From a bacterium (lineage in GTDB: Bacteria; Patescibacteriota; Patescibacteriia; UBA2196), in contig DAOOQN010000004.1 in assembly GCA_035388785.1 (NCBI GenBank), forward strand, positions 4,318 to 68,317: DNA of 64,000 nucleotides. The letters are read 5' to 3'. The notes beneath the pieces are model-generated. The model made no database searches, was not told where the DNA came from, and saw only the letters and a list, made by a program, of their open reading frames with translations. The translations under genes and the position numbers were made by a program. Shown one piece after another: positions 4,027-56,489 of the stretch (positions are counted from its first letter, which is position 1; every line of letters starts with the position of its first letter).

Positions 4027-4341
4027 TTATTTTTTGCTTTTTTGTTTGTTTTTTGGGGCTGTACTTTCAGTACCATTTTTTTCGTTTTTAAAATAGCCAA
4101 CTATTTTGCTAATGCCTTCAGCCGCCAGATTTATATACAGGACTGTATTTTCCAATTTATCTTTGGCAGACTTAGTCAACTCGTCCAGTGTTTTTAATTT
4201 TTTCTTAATGCTGTTAGTAATTTGGTAAGCACGACGCATAATCATAATAATGTAGAAAAGCCACCAGCTAGTAAAAATGGTCAACCATAAAACACAGAAA
4301 GCAATTATGATATAAAGCAGGTCAAGTGAATTTTTTAGCAT
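4027..4341 (-). CDS. Small membrane protein with a coiled-coil tail (DUF948-like), hypothetical
   Basis: 104 aa. One N-terminal TM helix, then a charged and helical region, and a K-rich C-terminus. No motif I can assign. Confidence 0.4.
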   Translation of the reverse strand: MLKNSLDLLYIIIAFCVLWLTIFTSWWLFYIIMIMRRAYQITNSIKKKLKTLDELTKSAKDKLENTVLYINLAAEGISKIVGYFKNEKNGTESTAPKNKQKSKK

Positions 4342-4454: not shown

Positions 4455-5315
4455 ATGCCAGCAACGCTTCCCAAATGGTATTTAAGAGTCGCATATTTTT
4501 TTATTGCTAACCAAGTTATCATCAAACGGGCGGTTATTTTTATTTTTATATTTAGCAATATGCTCTTGTGGGGTTGGAATATTATAGCTTGGACTAATTA
4601 TCTCACCAACGCCAAAGTACATGACAGCACCATAGCCCTAATGCGTGAAAACTTAGTTAACTATGACAGCTTTAAAGCCTCTCACACTCCATTGGAACCA
4701 GAGATTTTACTGGTTTCAGCTGTGTCTAATGTTTCTGGTAAATATGATTTTTTGGCTAGAGTAAAAAATTTAAACATGGATTGGGCCATGACAAAAATTA
4801 AATACCGTTTTATTTATGCCGGTGGGGTGACAAATGTCAGAGAAAATTTTTTATTACCTGGTCAGGAAAAATATCTTTTTGCTTTTCTGGAAAATATTTC
4901 TGGAGCAGTGGGTGAACCACATTTAGAGATAATGGAAATAAGTTGGTGGCGAGTTAATCAGACGGAAGCCAATAAAATTATTGCCATTCTTAATGATCTT
5001 GCTTTTGCGGAAGAAAAATTTCAAAGCGTTGCGCAAAATTCAATTGTTTCTTTTAAAGCTAAAAATAATACACCCTATAGTTTTTGGGAGACTGGTTACC
5101 AGGTTATTCTATATGATGGTTCGCGGCCTATGGCTATCAATTATCTTTTGGCCACTAATTTTAAATCTGCTACAGAACAAGAATTGCAGGCCACTTGGTT
5201 TTCTACGCTTCCAAGTCCCAGTCGTATCGAAATTATAAGTGATGCAGACTTATTAAACCCTCAAAGCTATATGTCCACCTATGATAATTTAATGAGACCA
5301 CCCGGCCTTGAATGA
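4455..5315 (+). CDS. Hypothetical membrane-anchored protein, upstream of the SEDS gene and in the same orientation
   Basis: 286 aa with an N-terminal TM segment. A 30-nt gap separates it from the downstream FtsW/RodA gene, so they are probably co-transcribed. No recognisable catalytic motif. Confidence 0.4.
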   Translation: MPATLPKWYLRVAYFFIANQVIIKRAVIFIFIFSNMLLWGWNIIAWTNYLTNAKVHDSTIALMRENLVNYDSFKASHTPLEPEILLVSAVSNVSGKYDFLARVKNLNMDWAMTKIKYRFIYAGGVTNVRENFLLPGQEKYLFAFLENISGAVGEPHLEIMEISWWRVNQTEANKIIAILNDLAFAEEKFQSVAQNSIVSFKAKNNTPYSFWETGYQVILYDGSRPMAINYLLATNFKSATEQELQATWFSTLPSPSRIEIISDADLLNPQSYMSTYDNLMRPPGLE

Positions 5316-26675: not shown

Positions 26676-29246
26676 ATGCCTCCCTATGTTCCAACCTCAC
26701 CGCTAGAAACAGCTGGCCAAAATTTTTTTAATAGCCCATCTTTTTATGTTGGACTTTTTTTAATTGCCTTTATTGTTTTAGTCGTAATTTGTCTTTTGAT
26801 ATATCGCGCTTACGCGAAACATAATTATAAATTACCAGCTAAATATCGTCAGGTGGTTTTATTAATTTCAATGCCTAAAGAAGCACTGTCTGATAAAGAA
26901 GGTGGCAATGTAAATTCTATTGAAAAAATTCGTGAACAGATATCCTGGGCGGAAAATTTATGGGCACAAATTGGTGGCTTGAAAGCAGAAAAGGGATTCA
27001 AGGCCTGGTTGTATGGTCGGCACGATCATTTGTCTTTGGAGATTGTCGCGCATCAAAAGATGATTTATTTTTATATTGCAGTACCAAAATATTTGCAAAC
27101 CTATCTTGAGCAACAGCTACAAGCGCAATATTCTTATGCTCAAGTTGAAGAGGTTCCGGATTATAATATTTTTTCACCCACCGCGAGCGTTGTTTGTGCT
27201 AGTGTCAAACTTGAGAAACAAAACATGTTTCAAATTAAAACTTATAAAGAATTTGATGCTGACCCGTTAAACTCATTAACCAACATTTTAAGTAAACTTG
27301 GATCTGATGATAGCGCTGCCATCCAATTTGTTGTGCGCTCGGCTCACAAAAAATGGCGTACTGCAGGCTTAAAAATTGCCGCAGCCATGCAGCAGGGTAA
27401 ATCTTTGAAGGATGCTTTAAAAGCTAATAATAAAGATTTATTAAATACTTTAAGTAAGGGTTATAATGCACTGCTAAGCCAAGAAAGTGACAAAAAAAAC
27501 GATCAAGACAAAAGAGATGGTTTAACACCGGGTAGTTATCGTCTGTCGGCCAAAGAAGAAGAATTGGTCAAAAAAATTCAAGAAAAAAGTTCCAAAGCTG
27601 GTTTGGATGTTAATATTCGAGTGGTTGTGGCTGCTCAGAATTTACCGCTTGCTGATGCTTATTTGGCTAATATATTAAATTCTTTTGCTCAATATAATGT
27701 TTATGAATTTGGTAATGCTTTTAAGGTAGCCAAAAATAGTGGTGATGATAAAAATATTTCCGCTTTTATACATAGAATTTTTAATGATAAGAATAGCTTT
27801 GTCTTAAATACAGAAGAGTTGGCTTCGATTTTTCATTTTCCACTACCTTCCTGTGAAACACCAAACATACATTGGTTAGGTGCACGTAAGGCCGCAGCGC
27901 CGGTTAATATTCCGACTGAAGGTGTTGTGCTTGGTAAAAATATTTTTCGTGGCGGAGAAACACTGATTCGTATGAAACAAGAAGATCGCATGCGGCATAC
28001 ATATATTATCGGTATGACTGGTGCTGGCAAATCAGTTTTAATGGAAGAAATGGCCAAACAAGACATTGGGGCCGGTCGAGGTGTTTGTTTTATTGATCCA
28101 CACGGCACGGCTATTGATCGTATTATGCCCTGTATTCCAAAAGAAAGGCTTGAAGATGTTATCTATTTTGATCCTGCTGATACGGACCGACCAATTGGTT
28201 TAAATATGTTGGAAGCCAAGACACAACAAGAAATGGATTTTGCCACTTCAGAAATGATTAGTATTTTTTACAAACTTTTACCAGATCCTGCCATGGCCGG
28301 GCCAATGTTTGAACATTATATGCGTAATGCTTTGCTGGCTTTAATGGCTGATCAGGATGATCCTGGAACCTTGGTGGAGTTAGGACGAATTTTTACTGAT
28401 GAAGATTATCGTAAGAAAAAATTACATTATGTGCGCGATATTTTGGTAAAAGATTTTTGGGAAAGAGAATATGTAGCCTCGCAACGTGGCTCTATGGCTT
28501 CAGATATGCTTTCATATGTCATTTCTAAAACAGGTCGTTTTGTAGAAAATGAAATGATGCGCAATATTATTGGTCAGTCAATTTCAGGGTTTAATTTTCG
28601 CCAAGTTATGGATGAGGGTAAAATTTTGTTAGTCAATCTATCCAAAGGTAAAATTGGCGAGACCAATAGTAGCCTTTTGGGTTTAATTATTGTCTCGAAG
28701 CTACAGATGGCGGCCATGGCCAGGGCGGATTTGCCAGAAGAAAAAAGAAAAGATTTTATGTTATATATTGATGAGTTTCAAAATTATACCACTGATTCTA
28801 TGGCTATCATTTTAGCTGAAGCCAGAAAATATCGTTTAGCATTGATTATGGCTCATCAATATATTACGCAACTAGTCAAAGGTCAGGATACTTCCATTCG
28901 CGATGCTGTCTTTGGCAATGTGGGTAGTATGATTATTTTCCGTATTGGCGTAGAAGATGCCGAGATAATCGCCAAACAGTTTGCGCCCGTCTTTAATCAA
29001 CAAGATTTAATTAATATTGAAAAACGCAATGCTTATGTTAGACTCTTAATTGATGGTACAGCCAGTCGTCCCTTTAACATGGAATCCATGCCTTGGACTT
29101 TTGGTGATGAAAAAATTGTGACTGCCGTGAGTGAGTATTCTCGTCTAAAATATGGTCGTCCCAAAGATGAAGTCGAGAAGGAGATTATCCGACGGTCTAA
29201 AATAGGTGCTCTAGGTAAGGCTGCAGTTGATAATGAAGTTGAATAA
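26676..29246 (+). CDS. Membrane-anchored P-loop ATPase of the HerA/FtsK/TraD-VirD4 (T4CP-like) superfamily, fused form
   Basis: 856 aa. One N-terminal TM helix, a ~400-aa uncharacterised domain, then an ATPase with Walker A IIGMTGAGKSV, a CFIDPHG block, and Walker B YIDEFQNY. It is paralogous to the split pair at 35090-38458. Confidence 0.7.
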   Translation: MPPYVPTSPLETAGQNFFNSPSFYVGLFLIAFIVLVVICLLIYRAYAKHNYKLPAKYRQVVLLISMPKEALSDKEGGNVNSIEKIREQISWAENLWAQIGGLKAEKGFKAWLYGRHDHLSLEIVAHQKMIYFYIAVPKYLQTYLEQQLQAQYSYAQVEEVPDYNIFSPTASVVCASVKLEKQNMFQIKTYKEFDADPLNSLTNILSKLGSDDSAAIQFVVRSAHKKWRTAGLKIAAAMQQGKSLKDALKANNKDLLNTLSKGYNALLSQESDKKNDQDKRDGLTPGSYRLSAKEEELVKKIQEKSSKAGLDVNIRVVVAAQNLPLADAYLANILNSFAQYNVYEFGNAFKVAKNSGDDKNISAFIHRIFNDKNSFVLNTEELASIFHFPLPSCETPNIHWLGARKAAAPVNIPTEGVVLGKNIFRGGETLIRMKQEDRMRHTYIIGMTGAGKSVLMEEMAKQDIGAGRGVCFIDPHGTAIDRIMPCIPKERLEDVIYFDPADTDRPIGLNMLEAKTQQEMDFATSEMISIFYKLLPDPAMAGPMFEHYMRNALLALMADQDDPGTLVELGRIFTDEDYRKKKLHYVRDILVKDFWEREYVASQRGSMASDMLSYVISKTGRFVENEMMRNIIGQSISGFNFRQVMDEGKILLVNLSKGKIGETNSSLLGLIIVSKLQMAAMARADLPEEKRKDFMLYIDEFQNYTTDSMAIILAEARKYRLALIMAHQYITQLVKGQDTSIRDAVFGNVGSMIIFRIGVEDAEIIAKQFAPVFNQQDLINIEKRNAYVRLLIDGTASRPFNMESMPWTFGDEKIVTAVSEYSRLKYGRPKDEVEKEIIRRSKIGALGKAAVDNEVE

Positions 29247-29259
29247 TAAAATATTTTTT

Positions 29260-29844
29260 ATGTTAGAAAAGCTTTTTGGTTCCCGTACTAGAATAAAACT
29301 TCTTAAACTTTTTTTGACTGACCAAAATAGTAAGTTTTTTGTGCGTGAAATTACGCGCTTGACTGGTGAAAAAATAAATTCAGTTCGTCGAGAATTAGAT
29401 AATTTATCAGAACTGGGTTTACTGGAAGTAGTTGAAGAAATTACATTTGATAAAAAAGAAGAAAATAAGAAATTTTATCGCGTCAATAATAATTTTCCTT
29501 TATTGCGGGCTTTACAAGAAATTTTACTCAAAGCCAGACTTTTGGTGGAAAAAACATTGGCAACCAAGATTGATAAAATGGGTCATGTAAAATTTTTAGC
29601 ATTGAGCGGTTTTTTTGTGAACGATCCATATGCCCCGACTGATTTTTTAATTGTAGGACAGATTGATAAAAAAAAGTTAGCGCGTTTGGTTAATCAAATT
29701 TCCAAAGAATTTGGACAGGAATTACGTTATACCTGTTTTTCAACCCAAGAATTTAATTATCGCAATAAAATAACTGATAAATTTTTGTTTGAAGTTTTGG
29801 AAGGCAAAAAAATTGTGGTGCTTGATAGCTTGAGTAAAGAGTAG
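29260..29844 (+). CDS. wHTH regulator-like protein with a C-terminal degenerate minimal nucleotidyltransferase-like domain
   Basis: An N-terminal ArsR-like wHTH (LFGSRTRIKLLKLFL ... FVREITRLTGEKINSVRRELDNLSELGLLE) is followed by a C-terminal LSGFFVNDPYAPTDFLIVG block, which looks like an MNT GS...DxD motif with one Asp replaced. I prefer the ATG at 29260, because the track start at 29227 overlaps the upstream gene. Confidence 0.5.
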   Translation: MLEKLFGSRTRIKLLKLFLTDQNSKFFVREITRLTGEKINSVRRELDNLSELGLLEVVEEITFDKKEENKKFYRVNNNFPLLRALQEILLKARLLVEKTLATKIDKMGHVKFLALSGFFVNDPYAPTDFLIVGQIDKKKLARLVNQISKEFGQELRYTCFSTQEFNYRNKITDKFLFEVLEGKKIVVLDSLSKE

Positions 29845-30552: not shown

Positions 30553-30993
30553 ATGTATCTTTATTTGAACACCGCGGATTATAAATTTATGACTTTGGGT
30601 TTGATTAATAATCAAGGTCAAATTTTATGTCTAAAAAAAATAAAAGCCGAACATCAGCAAGCGGAAAAATTATTACTCAATCTGGAAAAAATATTTTTAA
30701 AGCAAGATAAAAGTTGGCGTCAAAACCTAAAAGGTATTGTTGCGGTTTTGGGTCCGGGCGGCTTTACAGCTTTAAGAATTGGTATTGCTACTGCCAACGC
30801 CTTGGCTTGGTCTTTGCAAGTCCCCATCTGCGGTGTAAAACCAAAAGGAAATATTTTTATCATGGGATTACAAGATGGGCAGCTAATAAGTATGGGTGTT
30901 AATAAGTTAAAAAAAATCAAAAAGTTTAAACAGCTATTGCCATTTTATGGTAGCGAGCCGCACATAACTTTTAAAAAACGTCTTGACACGTAA
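30553..30993 (+). CDS. tsaB: TsaB-like (t6A complex dimerisation subunit), short
   Basis: 146 aa. It carries GPGGFTALRIGIATANALAW, the TsaB/YeaZ motif. It is much shorter than canonical TsaB. Confidence 0.6.
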   Translation: MYLYLNTADYKFMTLGLINNQGQILCLKKIKAEHQQAEKLLLNLEKIFLKQDKSWRQNLKGIVAVLGPGGFTALRIGIATANALAWSLQVPICGVKPKGNIFIMGLQDGQLISMGVNKLKKIKKFKQLLPFYGSEPHITFKKRLDT

Positions 30994-31039
30994 CCTTTAT
31001 GGCGATAAAATAAGTTTAAATTAATTTAAAAGCATTTTT

Positions 31040-32707
31040 ATGAGTTTATCAACCAAATCACAGAACCGCTATAAATTGGCTGGCATTATTATTTTAGCCA
31101 TTTTTTGTGCTCTGATCGTTTATCCAAAAGTTCCTACTGGTACACCTCTGGAAAATTTTTGGAATAAATTTAAATTTCGTCTAGGCCTTGATTTGCAGGG
31201 TGGCGCGCACTTGGTCTATCAAGCCGACACCAGTCAAGTTGAAGGACGCGATCAAGCTTCGGCTGTGGCCGGTGTACGTGATGTTATTGAAAGGCGAGTG
31301 AATGCTTTTGGTGTATCCGAACCAGTTGTCCAAACTAATATGGTGGGTAACGATTATCGTGTTATCGTAGAATTGGCTGGTGTCAAAGACGTTGATCAAG
31401 CCATTCAAATGATTGGTGAAACACCTCTTTTGGAATTTAAAACTCAAAATCCTAATTATAGTTCTGAATTAACAGATGCTCAAAAAGCAGAATTAGAAAA
31501 ATATAACAACGAACAGAAAGCCAAAGCTGAAAAAGTTTTAAAAGAGACTTTGGTAAAAAATTCCGACTTTGAAAGTTTGGCCAAACAATATTCCGAAGAC
31601 CCAGGTTCTAAAGACCAGGGTGGAGATTTGGGTTGGGCCAAAAGAGGTATGTTTGTCAAAGAGTTTGAAGACGAGATTTTTGATATTTTGCAACCTGGTC
31701 AAACTTCACAAATTTTAGTTAAAACCAGTTTTGGTTATCATATAATTAAAAAAATTGCGGTGCGTGGTGAGGGTGTAGACTTAGAAGTCCATGCACAACA
31801 TATTTTATTTAAAACACAAAACGAAGCTGATATTGTTTCTGACGCTAACCAATGGCTCAATACTCAGCTATCTGGTAAAAACTTAACACGCGCTCAGGTG
31901 CAATTTGATCCACAATCTGGCCAACCGCAAGTTGGTTTAGAATTTAATGACGAAGGCAAAACATTATTTGCCGAAATTACTGAACAAAATGTTGGTAAAC
32001 CCGTGGCCATTTTTTTGGATGGTCAACCTATTTCTGTGCCCAGAGTTGATGAACCCATAAAAGAAGGCAAAGCAGTTATTAGTGGTCGTTTTAACATAAA
32101 AGAAGCCAAACAATTGGTGGAACGTTTAAATGCCGGAGCTTTACCAGTTCCAATTACTTTAATTTCACAAGAGACTGTTGGTGCTTCACTGGGACAAGAA
32201 TCTTTAAATAAGAGTTTATTTGCTGGCATTATTGGTTTAGTTGCTGTGGCTTTGTTTATGTTATTTTTTTATCGTCTACCTGGTTTAATTTCAGTAATTG
32301 CTTTAATTATTTATGCTTTGATTAACTTAATGCTTTATAAAACATTGTCTATAACCCTAACTTTGGCTGGCATTGCTGGTTTTATTCTGTCGATTGGTAT
32401 GGCTGTGGATGCTAATGTATTAATTTTTGAACGTCTAAAAGAAGAACTAAAAGCTGGCCGTGAAGTTTCTTCAGCAGTTGACGAGGGTTTTAAAAGAGCT
32501 TGGACGTCTATTCGTGATTCAAACATTTCATCTCTTATCACCTGTGTTATTTTATATTGGATAGGTACTTCAATGGTCAAAGGTTTTGCATTAACCTTGG
32601 CATTGGGTATTTTTATTTCTTTATTTTCTGCCATTACTGTCACCAGAACTTTTTTGAAGCTTTTCTTGATCAAATCTTTCAAAGATAAAAAATGGCTTTT
32701 TGGTTAA
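31040..32707 (+). CDS. secD: Protein translocase subunit SecD with an embedded parvulin (PpiC-type) PPIase domain
   Basis: 555 aa. A TM1 helix and the SecD P1 motif LGLDLQGGAHLVY are followed by a complete parvulin signature (SEDPGSKDQGGDLGWAKRGMFVKEFEDEIFDILQPGQTSQILVKTSFGYHIIKK) at about aa 145-250. The SecD head domain and six C-terminal TM helices follow. Confidence 0.9.
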   Translation: MSLSTKSQNRYKLAGIIILAIFCALIVYPKVPTGTPLENFWNKFKFRLGLDLQGGAHLVYQADTSQVEGRDQASAVAGVRDVIERRVNAFGVSEPVVQTNMVGNDYRVIVELAGVKDVDQAIQMIGETPLLEFKTQNPNYSSELTDAQKAELEKYNNEQKAKAEKVLKETLVKNSDFESLAKQYSEDPGSKDQGGDLGWAKRGMFVKEFEDEIFDILQPGQTSQILVKTSFGYHIIKKIAVRGEGVDLEVHAQHILFKTQNEADIVSDANQWLNTQLSGKNLTRAQVQFDPQSGQPQVGLEFNDEGKTLFAEITEQNVGKPVAIFLDGQPISVPRVDEPIKEGKAVISGRFNIKEAKQLVERLNAGALPVPITLISQETVGASLGQESLNKSLFAGIIGLVAVALFMLFFYRLPGLISVIALIIYALINLMLYKTLSITLTLAGIAGFILSIGMAVDANVLIFERLKEELKAGREVSSAVDEGFKRAWTSIRDSNISSLITCVILYWIGTSMVKGFALTLALGIFISLFSAITVTRTFLKLFLIKSFKDKKWLFG

Positions 32708-32750: not shown

Positions 32751-33680
32751 ATGAATTTACACATCGTCAAAAATCGCAATTATTTTTTCATTTTTTCTGG
32801 AATTCTTGTAGTAGCTGGCCTTTTTAGCTTATATTTTTGGGGTTTAAAACCGGGCATTGATTTTACGGGCGGTTCTTTTTTGGAAATTAAGCTCAACAAT
32901 CAAAGTCAAGTTAATGCCCAAGAAATGGCCACTCAAATTCAAGCTGCTGTGTTAGATATTGGCGAGGTGCGCGTACAACCCACTGCCAGTGGTTTTATTG
33001 CACGTTCTCGTCATTTAACAGAAGCTCAACATCAAAGCATATTAGCAACTATGGATAAATTATATCCAGCCGATTCAACAGATGCTACTCAAGTTTGGGA
33101 AGAAGTAAGATTTGAATCAGTTGGGCCGATGATTGGGGTTGAACTAAAAAATAAAGCCATTTGGGCTTTGGCATTGGCCATGGCAGCCATAATTTTATAT
33201 ATCGCTTGGTCTTTTCGTAAAGTATCACGTCCGGTGGTTTCTTGGAAATATGGTGTTGGTGCGGTGATCGCTCTAATGCACGATTTAATAATTGTGACAG
33301 GAGCTTTTGCTATTTTTGGACATTTTTTTGGCTATGAAGTTGATTTGTTGTTTGTTTCCGCCCTGCTCACCATCCTTGGCTTTTCTGTGCATGATACTAT
33401 TGTTGTATATGATCGTACGCGTGAAAATTTAATTTACAGTCCACAAAAAACTTTTGACGAAACCTTAAATAAAGCTATTAATGAAACCATACACCGTTCC
33501 ATTAACACCTCTTTAACTGTTTTTTTAGTACTTTTAGCCCTTTATGTATTGGGTGGCGTGTCAACACAAAATTTTGTTTTAGCCTTAATGATCGGTGTGG
33601 TTATTGGTACCTATTCGTCAATTTTTGTCGCTTCAACACTGTTGATTGTTTGGCAACGATTGGGAAGTCGTAAAAATTAG
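32751..33680 (+). CDS. secF: Protein translocase subunit SecF
   Basis: 309 aa with a 6-TM SecF topology, immediately downstream of secD. Confidence 0.9.
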   Translation: MNLHIVKNRNYFFIFSGILVVAGLFSLYFWGLKPGIDFTGGSFLEIKLNNQSQVNAQEMATQIQAAVLDIGEVRVQPTASGFIARSRHLTEAQHQSILATMDKLYPADSTDATQVWEEVRFESVGPMIGVELKNKAIWALALAMAAIILYIAWSFRKVSRPVVSWKYGVGAVIALMHDLIIVTGAFAIFGHFFGYEVDLLFVSALLTILGFSVHDTIVVYDRTRENLIYSPQKTFDETLNKAINETIHRSINTSLTVFLVLLALYVLGGVSTQNFVLALMIGVVIGTYSSIFVASTLLIVWQRLGSRKN

Positions 33681-33729: not shown

Positions 33730-33760
33730 GACAGGCTTAATGCCTGTCTCTTTCTTTATT
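33730..33760 (+). terminator. Intrinsic terminator after secF (GACAGGC-TTAAT-GCCTGTC plus T-run)
   Basis: A 7-bp GC stem followed by TCTTTCTTTATTT. Confidence 0.55.
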
Positions 33761-33838: not shown

Positions 33839-34966
33839 ATGAGCGACATTTTAGATAAAGTCATATCTTCGGCCGATTTTAAAGAAAAAACCGCTATCTC
33901 TTGGACAGAGATTGTAAATTCTTTATTGGCTCTAATAAAGGCGCGTGAAGCCGAAATTTTACGTTTACGCTCTGGTTTGTATGACAATAAAGAACATACT
34001 TTGGAAGAAATTGGACGTAAAATGAATTTAACTCGTGAACGAGTGCGTCAATTAGAGAAAAACGCCAAAGATGACATCAAGGCTCATAAAAATTTTGATG
34101 GCATTATGGCACCAGCTAAAAACGCAGTTGAGCGGGCTTTGAATGAACATGGCGGCCTTTCCACTAAAGAAAGAATTTTGCAAACCGTTCTTATTAACTA
34201 TGAAATTGAAGATAATAAAAAGTTTTTACAATTTTTAATTGATAATTTTATTGATGAAGTGCAAGACGTTAAAAATAATCAGTTTGGCGAGGGTTGGCAT
34301 TTAAATGAACAGTATTTGAATTTGGCAGCTGAAGTTTTAGATCAAATTAAAATTTTAATTGAAACTAAAAATAATTTAGTGCAAGAAGATGAGTTGTTGG
34401 AAAATTTTCAAAAAACAGATTTTTATATAAATAATCAGGATAAATTTTTGCCTTTTTTAAGCAAAAATAGCAATGATTTAAGAAAGGTTCTAACTTCTTA
34501 TTTGGATTTATCGCATGAATTTGGTAAAACCCCCTTTAAACAGTGGGGTAAAGCAGACTGGCGCACAGTCACCCCCCGCAGGATTAATGATAAAATTTAT
34601 TCAATTTTGGATTGGTATAAACAACCAATGCACTTTCGTGATATTGCCGATAAAATTAACGCCGCCAAGTTTGATAAAAAAATGGCACATTCGGCCACCA
34701 TTCACAACGACCTGATTGCTGATGAACGTTTTGTTTTAATTGGTCGTGGTGTCTATGCTTTAAAGGATTGGGGTTATAAAAGTGGCGTAGTGGCTGATTT
34801 AATTGAAAAAATTATTAAGGGTGCTGAACAGCCTTTAAATAAAGAAGAAATTATTGCTGAAATTTTAAAACAAAGAGATGTAAAAGCTAACACTGTTTTG
34901 TTAGCACTTAATAAAGATGGTCGCTTTGAAAAAACAATTACTGGTGGATATAAATTAAAAATATAA
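33839..34966 (+). CDS. Sigma-70 region 4-like HTH protein with a C-terminal HARE-HTH-like domain
   Basis: 375 aa. An N-terminal block (EILRLRSGLYDNKEHTLEEIGRKMNLTRERVRQLEKNA) matches the sigma region 4 / LuxR-like HTH. A C-terminal block (IYSILDWYKQPMHFRDIADKIN ... VLIGRGVYALKDW) resembles the HARE-HTH of the RNAP delta subunit. Regions 1-3 of a sigma factor are absent. Confidence 0.5.
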   Translation: MSDILDKVISSADFKEKTAISWTEIVNSLLALIKAREAEILRLRSGLYDNKEHTLEEIGRKMNLTRERVRQLEKNAKDDIKAHKNFDGIMAPAKNAVERALNEHGGLSTKERILQTVLINYEIEDNKKFLQFLIDNFIDEVQDVKNNQFGEGWHLNEQYLNLAAEVLDQIKILIETKNNLVQEDELLENFQKTDFYINNQDKFLPFLSKNSNDLRKVLTSYLDLSHEFGKTPFKQWGKADWRTVTPRRINDKIYSILDWYKQPMHFRDIADKINAAKFDKKMAHSATIHNDLIADERFVLIGRGVYALKDWGYKSGVVADLIEKIIKGAEQPLNKEEIIAEILKQRDVKANTVLLALNKDGRFEKTITGGYKLKI

Positions 34967-35015: not shown

Positions 35016-35089
35016 TTGCATATTTTATGCTATAATATATATTGGAATTGTTTACATTTTTTGTCTAATTTATTCATTCTTTGTTTTGT

Positions 35090-36502
35090 ATGGAGTTTAT
35101 TTTGGATTTATTAAATTTAGATATAGTTAGTTTATCTACTTTGGGTGCCCATAACCCTTTTTATCTTATTTGGTTTTTCTTTATCCACGGTGGTTGGATA
35201 CTTTTTATTATCACATTTTTATTTCTTAGTCCGGTTCTGTGGATGGATTGGCGCCAAGGCTTGTATGCCAAGACCATTAAATGGATTTTTTTAGCTGTTG
35301 ATGTGCCGAGAAATAATGAACAATCACCCAAGGCAGTTGAACAAATTTTTAATCAAATCTGGGGCTCGATAACCGATTACACACTCTGGGCTAAGTTATG
35401 GCAGGGCAAATTCATGCCAAGTTTTAGTTTGGAATTGGTTTCTATTGATGGTTATATACAATATATTATTCGTACACCCAAACCATGGCGTGATTTAATT
35501 GAGTCAGCAATTTATGCTCAATATCCTGATGCTGAAATAGCCGAGATTGAAGATTATACCAAAGATATTACGCCAGATAATTTTGTGGAGAAGGGTTATG
35601 ATTTGTGGGGTACACAACTACAATTGACCAATTTAGAATATTATCCCATTCGAACGTATCCTTTTTTTGAACATTCTATTGCTAAAAAAATAGTTGATCC
35701 TATGTCGGCTCTACTAGAGATGATGAGCAAGTTAGGTCGTGGCGAACAGTTGTGGTATCAAATCATAATTAAACCCGTTGGTGATGATGTCTGGAAAGTT
35801 GGAGCTGAAAAATTAGTTAAAAAATTAATTGGCGCCGAAACCAAAGAAGAAACCCAAACTATTTTAGATGGTATTTTTAGTCGACTTTATAATACCACTA
35901 ATTTTTTATTACCACTGCAAAGCACTGAACAAAAAAAGGAACAAAAATTACCCTCCAAAGTTCTGTATATGTCAAAGGGGGAGTTGGAAACTGTGGCGGC
36001 TATCGAGATGAAAGCTTCTAAGACTGGTTTTAAAACCAAAATGCGCATGATTTATATTGGCAAAAAAGATGCGTTTTTTAAGCCACGTGGTTTGTCGCCA
36101 TTTTTTGGTGCTTTGCGACAATATGCTGGAGCTAATGGTTTTAAGCCAGCTGGTAAGACAGCCACTAAGGCCGAATATTTTTTTATTAAACCACGCATGT
36201 TATATAAACAAAAAAGAATCTTAAAACATTACAAATCACGCGCGTTGGATGCTGGAGTCAAAGAAGACGGTTATCTTTTAAATGTGGAAGAATTGGCCTC
36301 GGTCTATCACTTTCCTAGTATTGAAGTACCCACCAAGATGGTGCACACCTCTTTGAGTAAAAAAGTTCAGGCACCCATGAACATTCCCTTTGATGATTTT
36401 TTTGAACCGGAAATTTTGAGTAAAAAAGAACCTCAGTCTACAGATAGTATTACAAAAGATTCTGGATCGACTATGGCTCCGCCATCAAATTTACCAATTT
36501 AA
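35090..36502 (+). CDS. TM-anchored uncharacterised domain protein, the N-terminal half of split ATPase module B
   Basis: About 470 aa. It is homologous block-for-block to residues ~60-430 of the fused protein at 26676 (for example ELASVYHFPSIEVP versus ELASIFHFPLPSCETP). I prefer the ATG at 35090 over the TTG at 35081. Confidence 0.55.
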   Translation: MEFILDLLNLDIVSLSTLGAHNPFYLIWFFFIHGGWILFIITFLFLSPVLWMDWRQGLYAKTIKWIFLAVDVPRNNEQSPKAVEQIFNQIWGSITDYTLWAKLWQGKFMPSFSLELVSIDGYIQYIIRTPKPWRDLIESAIYAQYPDAEIAEIEDYTKDITPDNFVEKGYDLWGTQLQLTNLEYYPIRTYPFFEHSIAKKIVDPMSALLEMMSKLGRGEQLWYQIIIKPVGDDVWKVGAEKLVKKLIGAETKEETQTILDGIFSRLYNTTNFLLPLQSTEQKKEQKLPSKVLYMSKGELETVAAIEMKASKTGFKTKMRMIYIGKKDAFFKPRGLSPFFGALRQYAGANGFKPAGKTATKAEYFFIKPRMLYKQKRILKHYKSRALDAGVKEDGYLLNVEELASVYHFPSIEVPTKMVHTSLSKKVQAPMNIPFDDFFEPEILSKKEPQSTDSITKDSGSTMAPPSNLPI

Positions 36503-36511
36503 TTTTTTTGT

Positions 36512-38458
36512 ATGACTGTTTACGACCACGATCACGATCGTGAAATAACATATTTTGCTGCTACAAATTTTCGCAATCAAATGCTAAAGTTTGGCATTAA
36601 AACCGAGGATCGTCGGAGGCATGTTTATATTCTTGGTAAAACCGGTAGCGGTAAAACCACTTTGGAAGCCAATATGGCTCTGCAAGATATTGAACGCGGT
36701 CATGGTATGTGTTTGGTAGATCCACATGGCGATGTCCTAAATTCAGTTTTGGATTATATTCCGTCTCACCGGGTTAATGATGTGATTTACTTTAATCCAT
36801 CTGACACCGCATACCCAATAGCTTTTAATATTTTGGAAAATATTAATCCCGAACATAAGCATTTAGTGGCTTCTGGTTTAATGAGTGTTTTTAAAAAAAT
36901 ATGGGCCAATTTATGGTCGGCGCGCATGGAATATATTTTGAATAATTGTATTTTGGCTCTTTTGGATTCACCGGGTAATACATTATTGGGCATTATGCGC
37001 ATACTCACAGATAAAGATTTTCGTCGTAAAATTGTCGATAATATTAAAGATCCGGTGGTTAAATCTTTTTGGGTCAATGAATATGCCAATTATCAAGATC
37101 GATTTCGTCAGGAAGCCATTGCGCCAATTCAAAACAAAGTTGGACAGTTTTTATCTTCGGCGGTTATTCGTAATATTGTGGGTCAAACAAAATCTACCAT
37201 TGAACCCAGAAAAATAATTGATGAGGGAAAAATTTTACTGCTTGATTTGGCTAAAGGTAAAATTGGTGAAGACAATTCTTCTTTGTTGGGAGCCATGATG
37301 ATTACCAAAATTTGGTTGGCAGCCATGTCGCGTGTTGATATACCGGAAAACGAGCGTCTTGATTTTTATCTATATGTGGATGAGTTTCAGAATTTTGCCA
37401 CCGAATCTTTTGCTGATATTTTATCTGAAGCCAGAAAATATCGTTTAAATTTAACTGTAGCGCATCAATATATTGCCCAACTTGTTTCGCCTGATTCCAC
37501 CCGTGTTAAAGATGCTGTTTTTGGCAATGTGGGCACCATAATTTGTTTTCGTGTTGGTGGTGGTGATGCTAAAGAGTTAATTAAAGAATTTGAACCGACT
37601 TTTTTGGAAGAAGATCTTGTTAACATTGGTAAACATGAAATATTTTTAAAACTGATGATTGACGGTATGGCTTCGGCACCATTTAGTGCCAAAACCCTGC
37701 CGCCACTTTCCACTGGTCGTGAGAATAAAAATCGTGAAAAAATTGTGCGCATTTCACGTGAACGTTATTCTAATACCAAAGAAGAAGTTGAAGAAAAAAT
37801 TATGCGTTGGTCTGGTGTTGAAGAAATGTTTAAAGAGACTGCCAAATCTGAATATGTGGATGAAGAAAAAATGGTTTACAAAGAGACTCAAACTAAAACC
37901 AACAATTTAAGCACCAAGATAAAGGTAGTTGAAACAAAACCTGGGCAAGTGCAAACAGACGATAAAAAACATCTGGATGCTTTTTGTGATAATTGTGGTC
38001 AACCAACTCGTATTAACTTTCTACCAGATTTAAGTAAATCAATTTTTTGTCGTGATTGTTTGAAAGAGTTTAAAAAAGGCAGTATTGATCCACATAAATT
38101 AAAATCAAAAAACGGTCATCTTTCGGATATTGTTAAACAACAAAAGGCGGGTTTAGAACCAACTTTAGCAGTGTCAGAAGGGGCTATTTTAAGCCCTCAA
38201 AATACAAAAGTCTTGGAAAAAAGTTTAGCATCTGCTACAGTTACGGTACCCCCATCACCCGATCAAGTTTTGACAGCCAAAATTAAAAAGGCAAAAATAA
38301 ATTTTTTAGACAATCTAAAATATAAACCAGAGGAAATAAGTCAATCAACCGTCGGCTTGGATGCTTTAAAAGATATAAATCAAGTAGTACCCTTTAATAA
38401 GATTGGAACTAAAAAGGAATCTCAAAAAATTGATCCAGGGCAGGTGATCAGGTTTTAA
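36512..38458 (+). CDS. HerA/FtsK/TraD-VirD4-superfamily ATPase, the C-terminal half of split module B, with a C-terminal Zn-ribbon extension
   Basis: 648 aa. Walker A ILGKTGSGKTT, an LVDPHG block, and Walker B YVDEFQNF are present. It aligns with the C-terminal half of 26676, and adds a ~250-aa tail containing CDNCGQ ... CRDC. Confidence 0.7.
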   Translation: MTVYDHDHDREITYFAATNFRNQMLKFGIKTEDRRRHVYILGKTGSGKTTLEANMALQDIERGHGMCLVDPHGDVLNSVLDYIPSHRVNDVIYFNPSDTAYPIAFNILENINPEHKHLVASGLMSVFKKIWANLWSARMEYILNNCILALLDSPGNTLLGIMRILTDKDFRRKIVDNIKDPVVKSFWVNEYANYQDRFRQEAIAPIQNKVGQFLSSAVIRNIVGQTKSTIEPRKIIDEGKILLLDLAKGKIGEDNSSLLGAMMITKIWLAAMSRVDIPENERLDFYLYVDEFQNFATESFADILSEARKYRLNLTVAHQYIAQLVSPDSTRVKDAVFGNVGTIICFRVGGGDAKELIKEFEPTFLEEDLVNIGKHEIFLKLMIDGMASAPFSAKTLPPLSTGRENKNREKIVRISRERYSNTKEEVEEKIMRWSGVEEMFKETAKSEYVDEEKMVYKETQTKTNNLSTKIKVVETKPGQVQTDDKKHLDAFCDNCGQPTRINFLPDLSKSIFCRDCLKEFKKGSIDPHKLKSKNGHLSDIVKQQKAGLEPTLAVSEGAILSPQNTKVLEKSLASATVTVPPSPDQVLTAKIKKAKINFLDNLKYKPEEISQSTVGLDALKDINQVVPFNKIGTKKESQKIDPGQVIRF

Positions 38459-43364: not shown

Positions 43365-44363
43365 ATGAAAACTCACTATAAAATTTTTATTGGCGTGTTT
43401 ATTGTTTTTATTATTTTTTTAATAATAGCCAATTTTAATTTTGGCGCTGATAATAAAATAATTTGGGGTGCCACATTTTCCAAATTGCAAGCTCAAGAGT
43501 TGGGTATTGATTGGGTAATTGCTTATGGTGCCATGATTGATGAATTAAATTTAAAAACCGTTCGCTTACCAATCTATTGGCCGGATGTGGAAAAAAGTCC
43601 AGGAGTTTTTGATTTCTCAGCTTATGATTGGATGATTGAAAAAGCCTTACAAAAAAATATTGAAGTGGTACCGGTGTTAGGTCGACGCGTGCCACGCTGG
43701 CCAGAATGTCATACCCCAGAGATGTATAAAAATCTAACCGAAGACGAAATAAAAACAAAAATACTGGCTTTGCTTAAAGTTGAAGTGGAACATTTTAAAA
43801 AATATTCCAATATAAAAAAATGGCAGCTTGATAACGAACCGTTCGCTGATTTTTTTGGTCAGTGTCCACTTGGCGAGGAGAGTTTGGTACGTGAAGAAGC
43901 GGCCTTGGTGCGCTCACTTGATACACGTCCAGTTATGATGACTGAATCGGGCGAACTTTCCTCGTGGTTTAAGGGTGCAAAAATTGGTGATTTTTTGGGT
44001 GTATCTATGTATCGACAGACGTGGAATAAAAGATGGGGCTGGTTTAACTATCCTTTGCCACCAGCTTTTTATTATTTTAAAGCCCAAATAGTAAAACTTT
44101 TTACACCTGTCAAAAAAGTTATCAATACCGAGTTGCAAACAGAACCGTGGGCCATTGATAATAATTTAACAAAAATGGATTTATTTGATCAGTTTTATTC
44201 CATGGATTTGGCACAAGTAAAAAGTAACGTTAAATTTGCCCGTTCTGCTGGTCTGGATGAAGTTTATCTTTGGGGTGTGGAATGGTGGTGGTGGTTGGGT
44301 GATAAAAAAGGGGATTGGAGTTTTTGGGAATATGGCAAGACAATAAGTTCAGATAATTTTTAA
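43365..44363 (+). CDS. TM-anchored glycoside hydrolase, GH5/GH113-like (beta/alpha)8 barrel
   Basis: 332 aa. An N-terminal TM helix and a WQLDNEPF block (an NEP acid/base motif typical of clan GH-A) are present. The family assignment is tentative. Confidence 0.5.
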   Translation: MKTHYKIFIGVFIVFIIFLIIANFNFGADNKIIWGATFSKLQAQELGIDWVIAYGAMIDELNLKTVRLPIYWPDVEKSPGVFDFSAYDWMIEKALQKNIEVVPVLGRRVPRWPECHTPEMYKNLTEDEIKTKILALLKVEVEHFKKYSNIKKWQLDNEPFADFFGQCPLGEESLVREEAALVRSLDTRPVMMTESGELSSWFKGAKIGDFLGVSMYRQTWNKRWGWFNYPLPPAFYYFKAQIVKLFTPVKKVINTELQTEPWAIDNNLTKMDLFDQFYSMDLAQVKSNVKFARSAGLDEVYLWGVEWWWWLGDKKGDWSFWEYGKTISSDNF

Positions 44364-45061: not shown

Positions 45062-45135
45062 CGGGATATAGCGCAGTTGGCTAGCGCGCGTCGTTCGGGA
45101 CGACGAGGTCGCCGGTTCGAGTCCGGCTATCCCGA
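45062..45135 (+). tRNA. tRNA-Pro (anticodon CGG)
   Basis: I folded the cloverleaf by hand. Acceptor CGGGATA / TATCCCG. D-arm GCGC-AGTTGGCTA-GCGC. Anticodon arm CGTCG-TTCGGGA-CGACG, giving anticodon CGG with G37. T-arm GCCGG-TTCGAGT-CCGGC. No encoded CCA. Confidence 0.85.
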
Positions 45136-53750: not shown

Positions 53751-56489
53751 ATGTCAATTTTAACTAAAATTTTTGGTGACGCTAACGAACGGGTTATTAA
53801 AAATTTAAAAAATACAGTTTTGTTAGCTAATAAATTAGAAACTAAAATTAAACTTTTTAAAATCGATGATTTTAAAGAGAAAACTTTTTTTTACAAAAAA
53901 AAACTAGCTGATAAATCTTTTGCCGAACAGCAGATAATTTTAGACGAAATTTTGCCAGAGGTTTTTGCTTTAGTACGTGAGGCAGCGCACAGGACTTTAG
54001 GGCAGCGGCACTATGATGTTCAACTTTTGGCTGGCATGGTTTTACACCAAGGCAACATAGCTGAAATGCGTACTGGTGAAGGTAAAACATTGGCGGCCAC
54101 AGTGGCTGTTTATTTAAACGCCTTGACTGGTCGTGGGGTGCACGTTATTACAGTCAATGATTATTTATCCCGTCGTGATGCTGTGTGGATGGGGCAGGTC
54201 TATAATTATTTGGGTCTGTCAACCGGGTGTTTAAACCATGAGACCGCTTTTTTGTATGACAGTACTTATCATGAATTGGGTAATATGGATAATGAGCGTG
54301 ATACAACAGGTTCTTTTAAAGTATTAGATAAATTTTTACGACCCGTGCCACGCCAAGAAGCCTATCTGGCCGATATAACTTATGGCACGAATAATGAATT
54401 TGGTTTTGACTATTTGCGCGACAACATGGTGCAAGGTTTAAATGAGAAGGTCCAGCGCGAACTCCATTATGCTGTGGTGGATGAAGTTGATTCAATTTTA
54501 ATTGATGAAGCACGCACACCTCTTATCATTTCCGCACCCGATATGGAATCAACTGATAAATATCGTCAATTTGCAGAGTTGGTTGAAAGGTTGCGGGAAA
54601 GCGAGGATTATAATATTGATGAAAAAATGAAAGCTTCAACTTTAACCGAAGCCGGTATTGCTAAAATGGAAAAATGGTTAAATGTGGAAAATATTTATAC
54701 TGATCGTGGAGTGCGCGATGTGCATCATATTGAACAAGCCTTGCGTGCCAAGGTTTTATTTAAAAAAGATCGCGACTATGTAATTAAAGATGGTGAAATT
54801 CTTATTGTAGACGAGTTTACTGGGCGACTTATGATTGGACGTCGTTATTCTGATGGTTTGCATCAGGCCATTGAAGCCAAAGAAAATGTGGCTGTCAAAC
54901 AGGAATCAGTCACTATGGCCACCATTACTTTTCAAAATTATTTTCGCATGTATCAAAAATTGGCTGGTATGACTGGCACAGCCGCCACTGAAGCTGAAGA
55001 ATTGTCTAAAATTTATAATTTGGATGTAGTAGTTATTCCAACCAATAAACCAATGATAAGAATTGATAAGTCTGATGCAATTTTTAAAAATGTTAATGGT
55101 AAATATCAACGCTTAGTTAAAGAAATTAAGAAGCGCCACAAAGTTGGTCAGCCTGTTTTAGTAGGCACAATTTCTATTGAAAATAACGAATACTTGTCAG
55201 AATTATTAAAACGTGAAGGTGTACCACACGAACTTTTAAACGCCAAAAATCATGAGCGTGAAGCAGAAATTATTGCTCAAGCTGGTCGTGTTGGTGCAGT
55301 GACTATTGCCACCAATATGGCTGGTCGTGGTGTGGATATTATTTTGGGTGGTAACCCAGTTAATAAAGAGGATCAGGAAAAAGTCAAAGCCTTGGGTGGT
55401 TTATGCGTTTTAGGCACAGAAAGACATGAATCTCGTCGTATTGATAATCAGTTGCGTGGTCGCGCTGGACGTCAAGGCGATAGTGGTGAAACACATTTCT
55501 TTGTTTCTATGGAAGATGATTTGATGCGTATTTTTGGTGGCGACAAAATGAAATCAATTTTGCAGGCTTTGGGTTTAGAAGATGATAAACCGATTGAAAA
55601 TAAAATGATTTCTAATTCTATTGAAAAAGCACAGATGAAAGTTGAGGGCCACAATTTTGATATCAGAAAGCACCTAGTTGAATATGATGATGTAATTAAT
55701 AAACACCGTGAAGTAATCTATAAAAAAAGGAATGAAGTCCTGGCTGCCAACAGTACTGGTCAAGCCATGCAAGATGATATCTTAAAATTTTTACAAGAAG
55801 AGTTAGAAACAGTGGTTAATTTTCATACACAAAACGAGGATGAAAGTTTGTGGAATCTGGATGAAATTTATGAAGTTGTGGATACTATTTTTCCAGTTCC
55901 ACTTTCAGTGCGTATTAAAATTGAAGACATTAAAGACACGGCCGGTGATATAAAACAAGATTCTTTGGCCAAAGAAAAACTTATTAATTATCTTTTTAAT
56001 TTAGGAAAAATCGCTTATCAAGAACTAGAAGAAAAAATAAATTCTGATGAAAAAATCAAAGCTCAGCTGAAAGAAGGTCTGGAACCCATGCGCGCTGTGG
56101 AGCGCGCCATGTTATTGCGTTCCATTGATACTTTGTGGGTTGAACACATTGACTCCATGGATCACATGCGTGAGGGTATTGGCTTGACTGGTTATGGGCA
56201 AAAAGACCCGTTGGTGGAATATAAAAAAGAAGCTCATCGTATGTTTTCTGAGCTTCTGGCCAATATTCGCAAGCAAATTGTTTATACAATTTTTAAAATT
56301 GGCTTAGTTAACACTGCCAATCAAACAACCTCTCAAACCAATCCCAATTTAATTATTAAAAATCAATCCGAAAGTACCTACATCGGCGCAGAAAAAGATA
56401 AATCGACTTATAATAAAGAAAAAATTGGTCGCAATGATTTTTGTCCTTGTGGTAGCGGTTTAAAATTTAAGAAATGTCATGGGAAATAA
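53751..56489 (+). CDS. secA: Preprotein translocase ATPase SecA
   Basis: 912 aa. The DEAD-like motor motifs (MRTGEGKTL, DEVDSILIDEART) and a C-terminal Zn finger CPCGSGLKFKKCHG are present. Confidence 0.97.
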   Translation: MSILTKIFGDANERVIKNLKNTVLLANKLETKIKLFKIDDFKEKTFFYKKKLADKSFAEQQIILDEILPEVFALVREAAHRTLGQRHYDVQLLAGMVLHQGNIAEMRTGEGKTLAATVAVYLNALTGRGVHVITVNDYLSRRDAVWMGQVYNYLGLSTGCLNHETAFLYDSTYHELGNMDNERDTTGSFKVLDKFLRPVPRQEAYLADITYGTNNEFGFDYLRDNMVQGLNEKVQRELHYAVVDEVDSILIDEARTPLIISAPDMESTDKYRQFAELVERLRESEDYNIDEKMKASTLTEAGIAKMEKWLNVENIYTDRGVRDVHHIEQALRAKVLFKKDRDYVIKDGEILIVDEFTGRLMIGRRYSDGLHQAIEAKENVAVKQESVTMATITFQNYFRMYQKLAGMTGTAATEAEELSKIYNLDVVVIPTNKPMIRIDKSDAIFKNVNGKYQRLVKEIKKRHKVGQPVLVGTISIENNEYLSELLKREGVPHELLNAKNHEREAEIIAQAGRVGAVTIATNMAGRGVDIILGGNPVNKEDQEKVKALGGLCVLGTERHESRRIDNQLRGRAGRQGDSGETHFFVSMEDDLMRIFGGDKMKSILQALGLEDDKPIENKMISNSIEKAQMKVEGHNFDIRKHLVEYDDVINKHREVIYKKRNEVLAANSTGQAMQDDILKFLQEELETVVNFHTQNEDESLWNLDEIYEVVDTIFPVPLSVRIKIEDIKDTAGDIKQDSLAKEKLINYLFNLGKIAYQELEEKINSDEKIKAQLKEGLEPMRAVERAMLLRSIDTLWVEHIDSMDHMREGIGLTGYGQKDPLVEYKKEAHRMFSELLANIRKQIVYTIFKIGLVNTANQTTSQTNPNLIIKNQSESTYIGAEKDKSTYNKEKIGRNDFCPCGSGLKFKKCHGK

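Follow-up and report, generated by a model that had tools for sequence, protein, structure and literature searches.

The sequence analysed here, referred to as the window, is a stretch of 64,000 nucleotides (nt) from a bacterium of the Patescibacteriota lineage UBA2196 (GenBank assembly GCA_035388785.1, contig DAOOQN010000004.1, forward-strand positions 4,318 to 68,317). The subject of this report is its secD gene, whose product, a subunit of the protein export machinery, harbors in its extracytoplasmic P1 domain an insert predicted to fold as a parvulin-type peptidyl-prolyl cis-trans isomerase (PPIase). Positions are those of the window, and the features of secD and secF are on the + strand.

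The secD gene (31040–32707) is a complete and uninterrupted open reading frame (ORF) of 555 amino acids (aa), including its stop codon. Its product reached 396 bits against the NCBIfam model TIGR01129 secD (cutoff 244.4), with aa 48–539 aligned to profile positions 1–397, and presented by Pfam the domain order of SecD, in which a first transmembrane helix (TM1) and the GG motif are followed by the base and head of P1 and by a C-terminal membrane domain. The N-terminal transmembrane helix (aa 5–27; 31052–31120), seen as a helix in the AlphaFold2 (AF2) model and aligned with TM1 of the Thermus thermophilus SecDF from residue 5 onward, puts SecD outside the cytoplasm up to about aa 385. It is followed at 31169–31450 by the Sec_GG motif (PF07549; aa 44–65, LGLDLQGG) and by the N-terminal subdomain of P1, SecD_1st (PF21760; aa 79–137), a region aligned to T. 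thermophilus residues 5–123 and ending in the conserved strand GETPLLEFK. The P1 head, SecDF_P1_head (PF22599; aa 275–370; 31862–32149; E 2.7e-30), aligned with the Thermus protein from residue 159 onward and was matched only from profile position 19, the first ~18 head positions having been displaced by the insert. The membrane domain SecD_SecF_C (PF02355) occupies aa 372–540 (32153–32659). The closest solved relative by sequence was the T. thermophilus SecDF 3AQP (E 4.6e-83), and a Foldseek search with the full-length SecD model recovered 5XAN, 5YHF and 3AQP as best matches (E 1e-22 to 1e-24).

The partner subunit SecF is encoded by a separate gene of 309 aa (32751–33680; TIGR00966, 274.8 bits versus a cutoff of 160), which starts 43 nt after secD. 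In SecD, D457 (nt 32408–32410) aligned with T. thermophilus D340 and was invariant in 47 homologues, while the SecF motifs VHDTIVV and IHRSIN kept the equivalents of T. thermophilus D637 and R671 in the alignment to 3AQP. These three Thermus residues are the ones that we take, following the structural literature on SecDF, to conduct protons. Judged from the model cutoff, the domain order and the proton-pathway residues, SecD is a bona fide member of its family, and by these residues the proton pathway of the SecDF motor is intact. Two candidate signals, both called by consensus match, surround the gene pair. A promoter-like site (TTGACA-17-TAAAAT, 11/12 matches; 30983–31011) lies 29 nt 5′ of the secD start codon, in a region where the count of such sites was in no excess over the shuffle expectation. 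A terminator-like hairpin (33730–33748; 7-bp stem with five GC pairs and a T-rich tail on both strands) lies 50 nt after the secF stop, with nine such sites in the region versus 2.7 expected. In this arrangement, secD and secF form a putative compact unit closed by the terminator-like hairpin.

The insert became evident from the alignment to 3AQP, in which aa 12–141 of SecD corresponded to residues 5–123 and aa 276–541 to residues 159–424, leaving 134 aa at a site where the Thermus SecDF has 35 (residues 124–158); by flank placement among 258 retrieved SecDs, the gap at this site was 139 aa. The whole inserted unit, delimited by this alignment and by AF2 modelling of the segment alone, spans about aa 137–272 (31448–31855) and comprises, in order, a linker, a long helix alpha1, the parvulin core, a hairpin, a beta1 strand and a short exit helix. 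It is extracytoplasmic by homology, since it comes after TM1 and before the membrane domain. Pfam recognized the core twice, as Rotamase_3 (PF13616; aa 152–239, E 7.4e-24, 85 bits versus a cutoff of 22.5) and as Rotamase (PF00639; aa 150–238, E 2.7e-20, 73.6 bits versus 21.7). Together with the matches in the Protein Data Bank (PDB) and those of Foldseek, these hits defined a parvulin segment running from alpha1 through beta4 (aa 146–242; 31475–31765), with a helix at 146–170, the strand GGDLGW at 196–201 and the strand FGYHIIKK at 232–242 in the AF2 model. A further strand, EVHAQHILFK (aa 249–258; 31784–31813), is placed after beta4 by a hairpin of six residues and is read here as a displaced beta1.

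Structure prediction supported a discrete domain. When the insert was modelled alone (aa 137–272, 39 aligned homologues), AF2 returned a predicted local distance difference test score (pLDDT) of 92.4 and a predicted template modelling score (pTM) of 0.85; in the full-length model, with a mean pLDDT of 84, the 10-residue blocks over residues 151–260 averaged 91–95. The insert model superposed on the parvulin domain of Bacillus anthracis PrsA1 (6XD8) with a root-mean-square deviation (rmsd) of 1.6 Å over 71 columns at 55% identity and on CsPin (2RQS) with 1.8 Å over 80 columns, TMt being 0.68–0.69 for both, and it also matched the multi-domain PPIase of Bacteroides fragilis 8HM3 (TMq 0.70). By sequence, the best PDB matches of the insert were SurA (E 2.5e-19) and B. 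anthracis PrsA1 (E 2.7e-17). By its predicted fold, the insert is thus a discrete domain of the parvulin/PpiC family.

These results bear out the first-pass annotation of this DNA, made from its letters alone, in placing a parvulin block between LGLDLQGG with the P1 N-terminal subdomain and the P1 head of a single 555-aa ORF, on which Pfam, the SecDF alignment and AF2 agreed; the significance of the profile match, which that annotation had left to be checked, was far above the cutoffs (Rotamase_3, 85 versus 22.5 bits), and modelling of the insert gave a discrete domain at the confidence stated above. It had further described the parvulin signature at 31472–31790 (aa 145–250) as complete. The parvulin match in this interval stood (E 7.4e-24), but its completeness did not, because beta1 with the first catalytic His lies downstream.

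A short repeat was noticed at the edges of the insert: FKTQN occurs at 31433–31447 (aa 132–136) and again at 31808–31822 (aa 257–261), with 13 of 15 nucleotides identical. It was considered as a junction or target-site-like duplication and as a sign of strand swapping, and was rejected as chance; the pair is probably a coincidence, because homologues show LEFKEQ versus ILIKTK at these edges.

Strand order and active site of the inserted parvulin

Canonical parvulins follow the order beta1-alpha1-3-beta2-alpha4-beta3-beta4. The SecD insert departs from it, since its beta1-like strand was found after beta4. The Pfam match started at profile position 9 for Rotamase and 29 for Rotamase_3, which indicated that no beta1 precedes helix alpha1. 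When aa 246–265 were moved in silico to the N-terminus, the Rotamase match reached profile position 1, with a rise from 77.5 to 82.3 bits, and Rotamase_3 rose from 87.4 to 93.8 bits, whereas the native upstream SecD flank GETPLLEFKTQ brought no gain. An alignment with SurA, a protein with tandem parvulins, points in the same direction: SurA aligned with the insert as its P1 core, the inter-domain linker and the beta1 of P2, in which EVHARHILLK faced EVHAQHILFK. A tandem parvulin that had been shortened at both ends would leave this pattern, which suggests such an origin for the permuted domain.

The predicted structures were consistent with this strand order. The strand at aa 249–258 had block mean pLDDT values of 91–98 across both models and of 97–98 in the insert-only model, which contained only four strand segments (beta2, beta3, beta4 and aa 249–258). 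The sheet of canonical parvulins has beta1 between beta2 and beta4. In the insert, a partner in this central slot is needed by beta2 (GDLGWA), and canonical parvulins could be superposed on the core; the first 14 residues of the Foldseek target stayed unaligned, which would follow if beta1 sat elsewhere in the chain. Taken together, the parvulin in SecD appears to be a circularly permuted variant of the same fold, a feature that adds to the first-pass annotation by setting beta1 apparently outside the interval flagged there, and aa 249–258 probably occupy the beta1 slot physically. Permutation would also account for insertability: as canonical beta1 runs straight into alpha1, the permuted entry (N-terminus of alpha1) and exit (C-terminus of beta1) are adjacent, and a domain with adjacent entry and exit points can be inserted into a host chain.

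An improbable alternative is that aa 249–258 represent a linker, or the relic of a tandem parvulin, in a domain that is unpermuted and either incomplete or completed by the LLEFK strand of SecD borrowed as beta1. The likeness of LLEFKTQN and HILFKTQN in this SecD speaks in its favor, as does the trailing strand of the two-unit relatives described below, which usually has no His and can therefore degenerate; moreover, the occupancy of the beta1 slot was inferred from the model rather than read from coordinates. Against this, homologues do not share the FKTQN similarity, and LLEFK belongs to the SecD_1st subdomain, being present in insert-less SecDs too. The trailing strand, not the LLEFK flank, extends the profile match to position 1, its H254 is conserved with H234 in one-unit forms, and the insert-only model, from which LLEFK is absent, is compact, its trailing strand having block mean pLDDT values of 97–98. 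LLEFK was accordingly rejected as the beta1 of the parvulin, there being no profile gain and the insert folding confidently without it.

The permuted domain keeps all four residues of the parvulin active site. D187 (31598–31600), T229 (31724–31726), H234 (31739–31741) and H254 (31799–31801) correspond to C113, T152, H157 and H59 of Pin1, the Asp at the position of Pin1 C113 being compatible with PPIase activity. The tetrad [DE][TS]HH was complete in 122 of 129 one-unit homologues, with H254 conserved together with H234, and the residues of the hydrophobic pocket (F209, F231, Y233 and L197) were conserved as well. This conservation suggests selection on catalysis, from which we infer the PPIase activity itself.

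Occurrence and variation of the insert

The possibility raised in the first-pass annotation that the fusion is a chimera, in which sequencing or assembly had joined a parvulin gene fragment to secD, carries nothing beyond the a priori risk of metagenome-derived sequence and was refuted, its remaining probability being negligible. Sixteen contigs encode an identical protein, and in the seven places shown, which stem from distinct samples of Logan, JGI and ENA and from independent assemblers, secD always lies between the same tsaB-like gene and secF. The GC content of the region is 0.33–0.43 with no discontinuity (window GC 0.35), the frame is continuous, and the model is confident across the insert. 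Finally, the same architecture recurs in homologues of other genomes. The survey of SecD architectures in relatives, also foreseen in that annotation, returned the same Pfam set, insert included, in all 120 best cluster representatives (57–100% identity), among which the named taxa were Patescibacteria, Parcubacteria, Kuenenbacteria, Komeilibacteria and Buchananbacteria. An exhaustive HMMER scan over 1.84 billion representatives at 50% identity found at least one parvulin core at the same site in 66 of the 150 best SecDs. In the species-representative genomes of GTDB, 46 of the 80 best parvulin matches were embedded in SecD, the titles of these loci including Falkowbacteria, Kuenenbacteria, Kerfeldbacteria, Komeilibacteria, Magasanikiibacteria, Moraniibacteria, Parcubacteria, Saccharibacteria and "Patescibacteria group", while the other 34 were stand-alone parvulins of Gemmatimonadota, Bacteroidota, archaea and other groups.

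The SecD-parvulin architecture is thus conserved and common in Patescibacteria, and its carriers are almost all Patescibacteria. The fusion had been called unusual in the first-pass annotation, which holds in comparison with model organisms but not within this group, where it is common and occurs in one-unit, two-unit and longer variants.

Some GTDB loci whose titles lie outside the Candidate Phyla Radiation (CPR) also carry the fusion, namely those of uncultured Gammaproteobacteria, Lysobacteraceae, Candidatus Binatia and Bdellovibrionales (L002–L005, L009, L013, L049 and L066). The C-terminal parts of their SecDs scored 393–468 bits, and many of these loci have a GC content of 0.28–0.45, the "Lysobacteraceae" one being at 0.30. 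Since the SecD scores are indistinguishable from those of bona fide CPR members, the labels were treated as unreliable, and a spread of the fusion to non-CPR hosts was rejected as the reading of these titles; the records look taxonomically wrong, or the contigs mis-binned.

The size of the insert varies. Among 258 retrieved SecDs whose two flanks could both be located, gaps of 0–60 aa held no parvulin core, gaps of ~120–180 aa held one unit, gaps of ~220–280 aa held two cores or one detectable core, and the longest forms reached ~480 aa. One SecD (P0138) presented at this site an 89-aa insert with no parvulin signal. The insert site has evidently been remodelled repeatedly within the patescibacterial radiation.

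Relatives of ~670–700 aa showed the order alpha1 - core A - beta1 - alpha1 - core B - beta1′. In 16 such two-unit proteins, the catalytic His was retained in the middle beta1 (15/16) and in core B (16/16), and was lost together from the outer elements, core A (0/16) and the trailing beta1′ (2/16). The inner unit, formed by beta1 and core B, is by these residues a canonical intact parvulin, so that each two-unit protein is predicted to keep one complete site, and the pattern agrees with nesting of a canonical inner domain within the hairpin between beta4 and beta1 of an outer domain that is permuted and degenerate. Longer forms of 770–1119 aa, which include SecDF fusions, among them one named Candidatus Peribacterales, carry a full-length canonical parvulin (profile positions 1–97) after sequence that resembles, by eye, further degenerate units; no SurA-N or PrsA-NC chaperone domain was found by Pfam in the 770–1100-aa forms at E <= 1e-3. 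In the long relatives examined, the P1-head match started at positions 17–20, and at 47 in one case. In one 795-aa protein (P0165), a hydrophobic, transmembrane-like stretch, WWQLIAYLVALGAGIAFVSSALGLFIG, was observed at residues ~430–460, after the parvulin and within what is expected to be the extracytoplasmic P1 head.

Possible role in protein export

The host protein and the inserted domain each have well-described counterparts. Canonical SecDF, as solved for T. thermophilus (3AQP/5YHF) and Deinococcus radiodurans (5XAM/5XAN), shares with the proteins described here the GG motif, the base and head of P1, the membrane Asp and the SecF partner, and differs in having the 35-residue segment 124–158 at the start of the P1 head, where 134 aa with a folded parvulin are found here. 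For the parvulin, the closest solved domain is that of PrsA (B. anthracis PrsA1 6XD8/6VJ4; Bacillus subtilis 4WO7/1ZK6), the lipoprotein foldase of Firmicutes, which has the Asp at the position of Pin1 Cys113 and the FGYHII motif in common with the insert, is likewise extracytoplasmic and membrane-tethered, and acts on Sec substrates in cells that have no outer membrane. However, the SecD insert does not have the NC chaperone domain, the lipobox or the dimerisation module of PrsA, its strand order is permuted, and its tether is a covalent insertion into SecD instead of a lipid anchor. The models of PrsA were matched in the parvulin part only and far below their cutoffs (PRK03095, 70.7 versus 361 bits; PRK02998, 76.7 versus 360; PRK03002, 53.4 versus 343). 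This SecD is therefore not a PrsA, even though its parvulin is PrsA-like, and it plausibly works like a PrsA welded onto SecD.

SurA of Escherichia coli (1M5Y, tandem parvulins P1-P2), the best PDB match by sequence, is also known from the surroundings of the translocon, since it was reported to interact with the SecDF-containing holotranslocon (PMC9987972). It differs from the insert in being a soluble periplasmic protein of canonical strand order that has an N-/C-terminal chaperone module, which the insert lacks; the SurA model PRK10770 gave 54.5 bits versus a cutoff of 394 and Pfam found no SurA_N, so this SecD is not a SurA either. What the first-pass annotation had called a PrsA/SurA-like foldase is accordingly PrsA/SurA-like in its parvulin domain alone, the NC and SurA-N chaperone domains and the lipobox being absent.

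Two further systems place parvulins at the exit of the Sec channel. In E. coli, PpiD-YfgM associates with SecYEG, and PpiD, a membrane-anchored protein containing a parvulin, receives emerging chains at the periplasmic face of the translocon (PMC9643414). PpiD is a separate protein with its own transmembrane anchor and chaperone domains, unlike the SecD described here, which has the parvulin built in. The parvulin of PpiD is catalytically inactive, in contrast to the SecD insert, which keeps the tetrad. In Mycoplasma pneumoniae, a dome formed by Mdp444/436/489 with SecDF-SecYEG sets PrsA-related PPIC domains over SecDF/SecYEG (10.1101/2025.04.25.650208; 10.1101/2024.09.05.611430); catalytic residues are found in only one PPIC domain, which is also the one contacted by substrate density (10.1101/2025.04.25.650208). 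The dome resembles the present case in belonging to a genome-reduced bacterium with no outer membrane, and its single active PPIC parallels the one intact site per SecD, whereas its large lipoproteins with SurA-like chaperone domains are separate and non-covalently bound, in place of the single small parvulin or nested pair fused here.

From these comparisons, the most likely role of the insert, held with somewhat more confidence than doubt, is that of a membrane-tethered foldase, or in another wording a substrate handler, on the proton-driven SecDF motor. In the established model, SecDF uses the proton gradient to swing a P1 head that holds the emerging chain, still unfolded, and draws it out of SecYEG (10.1101/2025.04.25.650208). 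In the proposed mechanism, a working SecD, as the proton-driven partner of SecF, would pull exported proteins out of SecYEG by a P1 arm that has gained a parvulin PPIase domain at the junction of its N-terminal base and its substrate-binding head. The chain would pass from the LEFK strand into alpha1, the core, beta4, the hairpin and beta1 before entering the P1 head, and the permutant, with its adjacent entry and exit, would sit as a discrete knob on the P1 arm. As the head catches and frees the unfolded chain, the adjacent parvulin would bind it and isomerise Xaa-Pro bonds, so that folding would be sped at the translocon exit by a foldase that, if soluble, would be lost from a small cell with no outer membrane; Patescibacteria have been proposed to lack this membrane (PMC12102498). 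The isomerase activity, the contact with substrate and the coupling to the SecDF cycle would all be parts of this role, and a coupling of export to folding, as a prediction, is well motivated by the non-covalent analogues.

Several observations weigh against this foldase reading. The geometry between domains is uncertain because the full-length model reached a pTM of only 0.54, and the placement of the parvulin with respect to the P1 head, the base and the SecY exit is tentative. In SurA, PpiD and PrsA, the parvulin domains frequently show weak catalysis or can be spared in chaperone function, for which reason the conservation of residues is no proof that selection acted on isomerase activity, and the retention of a degenerate outer unit in the two-unit forms shows that a non-catalytic role also has selective value. 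Moreover, in one Azambacteria/Patescibacteria cluster (P0145), SecD is 473 aa long and the site holds only 30 residues, and a survey of freshwater CPR bacteria reported PrsA annotations in all CPR classes. As some patescibacterial SecDs have no insert and PrsA annotations exist, the insert is neither universal nor demonstrably a replacement for PrsA. Within the 64-kb window itself, no second parvulin or PrsA gene was found by hmmsearch --max over all six-frame ORFs.

Some weight is due to a parvulin that serves as a non-catalytic, substrate-binding holdase or clamp, which would enlarge the grip of the P1 head on the exported chain and for which isomerase chemistry would be irrelevant to the selected role. 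This is unlikely, yet it is the functional alternative to be taken most seriously. A degenerate outer parvulin persists in the two-unit and longer forms, with the His counts given above for core A and the trailing strand, and the extra sequence of the longest forms resembles further degenerate units. It is also established that chaperone function is largely separable from PPIase activity in SurA, PpiD and PrsA, and the Mycoplasma dome has catalytic residues in only one of its three PPIC subunits. On the other hand, a full tetrad in 122 of 129 one-unit homologues and an inner site whose His residues persist in 16/16 cores and 15/16 strands would be difficult to account for if the active site were not under selection, and holdase and foldase roles are not mutually exclusive. 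Far less probable is a lineage-specific decoration of P1 unrelated to the folding of Sec substrates, such as a spacer or a contact with the cell wall, the S-layer or a host surface in an episymbiont. P1 is indeed a hot spot of size variation, with gaps of 0–480 aa at this site and a much larger P1 in the SecD of E. coli (5MG3, by the alignment offset), and CPR bacteria have unusual envelopes and lifestyles; however, a conserved active site and hydrophobic pocket would be unexpected in a mere spacer, and the location beside the substrate-binding head, together with the known partnerships between foldases and the translocon, favors a role on substrates.

A more far-reaching version of the foldase reading joins several steps and is, as a whole, doubtful. 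It would have the insert as the first recognised natural circularly permuted parvulin, made from a tandem parvulin by duplication and truncation, with the two-unit forms perhaps being relatives or intermediates; as a mobile foldase driven by the proton motive force; and as evidence of a general hand-over from SecDF to parvulins. If this were true, each SecDF power stroke would present the chain to an isomerase site hinged to the moving P1 head, translocation and prolyl isomerisation would be mechanically coupled in one polypeptide, and the fusion, taken as a "Rosetta stone", would mark the hand-over from SecDF to parvulins of the PrsA/SurA/PpiD type as a general and ancestral step of export.

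A full-text search of about 8 million papers and preprints, the scope of which did not extend to subscription-only papers, turned up neither an account of SecD fused to a parvulin nor one of a parvulin with circular permutation. Public databases contain hundreds of such sequences, whose label is "protein translocase subunit SecD" and for which Rotamase figures in the precomputed Pfam hits; as the label names SecD alone, the predicted PPIase activity of these CPR genomes has been overlooked in annotation. The SecDF motor, the parvulin foldase domain and the general idea of a link between export and folding were already known, and what is new is the covalent and apparently permuted arrangement. 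The route by which exported proteins reach extracytoplasmic folding factors after the Sec channel is a matter of ongoing study, and the links known so far (PpiD-YfgM, the contact of SurA with the holotranslocon, and the Mycoplasma dome) are all non-covalent and difficult to capture. Here, SecDF bears on its moving arm a covalently fused parvulin that is predicted to be catalytically intact, and this fusion is conserved in a large radiation of bacteria with reduced genomes, for which the absence of an outer membrane has been proposed; it would be independent evolutionary evidence that both activities belong together, and a system contained in one polypeptide makes the coupling of export and folding open to direct structural and biochemical testing. 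The apparent permutation and the nested two-unit forms would also provide a natural example of permutation and insertion of a domain of the parvulin fold.

Genes surrounding secD and secF

The genes of the window are those of an ordinary chromosome, among them dnaE, rodA, prfA, gap, dnaK/dnaJ, corA, the gene for PBP2, mreB, secA, ackA and recJ. On the strand that also carries secDF, and 21 kb downstream of it, lies the secA gene (53751–56489; 912 aa, with the SEC-C zinc motif), an arrangement that sets the ATPase of the translocon and the modified SecD in one chromosomal neighbourhood. Just upstream of secD, at 30553–30993, is the gene of a 146-aa protein of the TsaB/TsaD fold, for which the match to the family profile is confined to the N-terminal ~60 residues; gene callers in other contigs set its start so as to give 134 or 146 aa. 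Directly after secF, a 375-aa protein (33839–34966) combines a sigma-70 region 4 (aa 30–77) and a HARE-HTH domain (aa 255–311) with no region 2, and its position is kept in all independent contigs.

The secDF pair is flanked by two type IV coupling-protein ATPases of the TrwB/VirD4 type. The first (26676–29246; 856 aa) has a transmembrane segment at its N-terminus and ~400 unassigned residues that match DUF8128 in precomputed hits, and the second (36512–38458; 648 aa) carries a treble-clef zinc finger. Thousands of VirD4-like genes have been reported in Patescibacteria, mostly far from virB4 (PMC12102498). Four ORFs, at 29227–29844, 35081–36502, 4455–5315 and 43365–44363 (205, 473, 286 and 332 aa, respectively), had no Pfam match at E <= 1e-3 or 1e-4; in related contigs, the 473-aa ORF has a precomputed hit to DUF8128, a family shared with the N-terminal part of the neighbouring coupling-protein ATPase. 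The sole tRNA gene in the 64 kb is that of tRNA-Pro (CGG), at 45062–45135.

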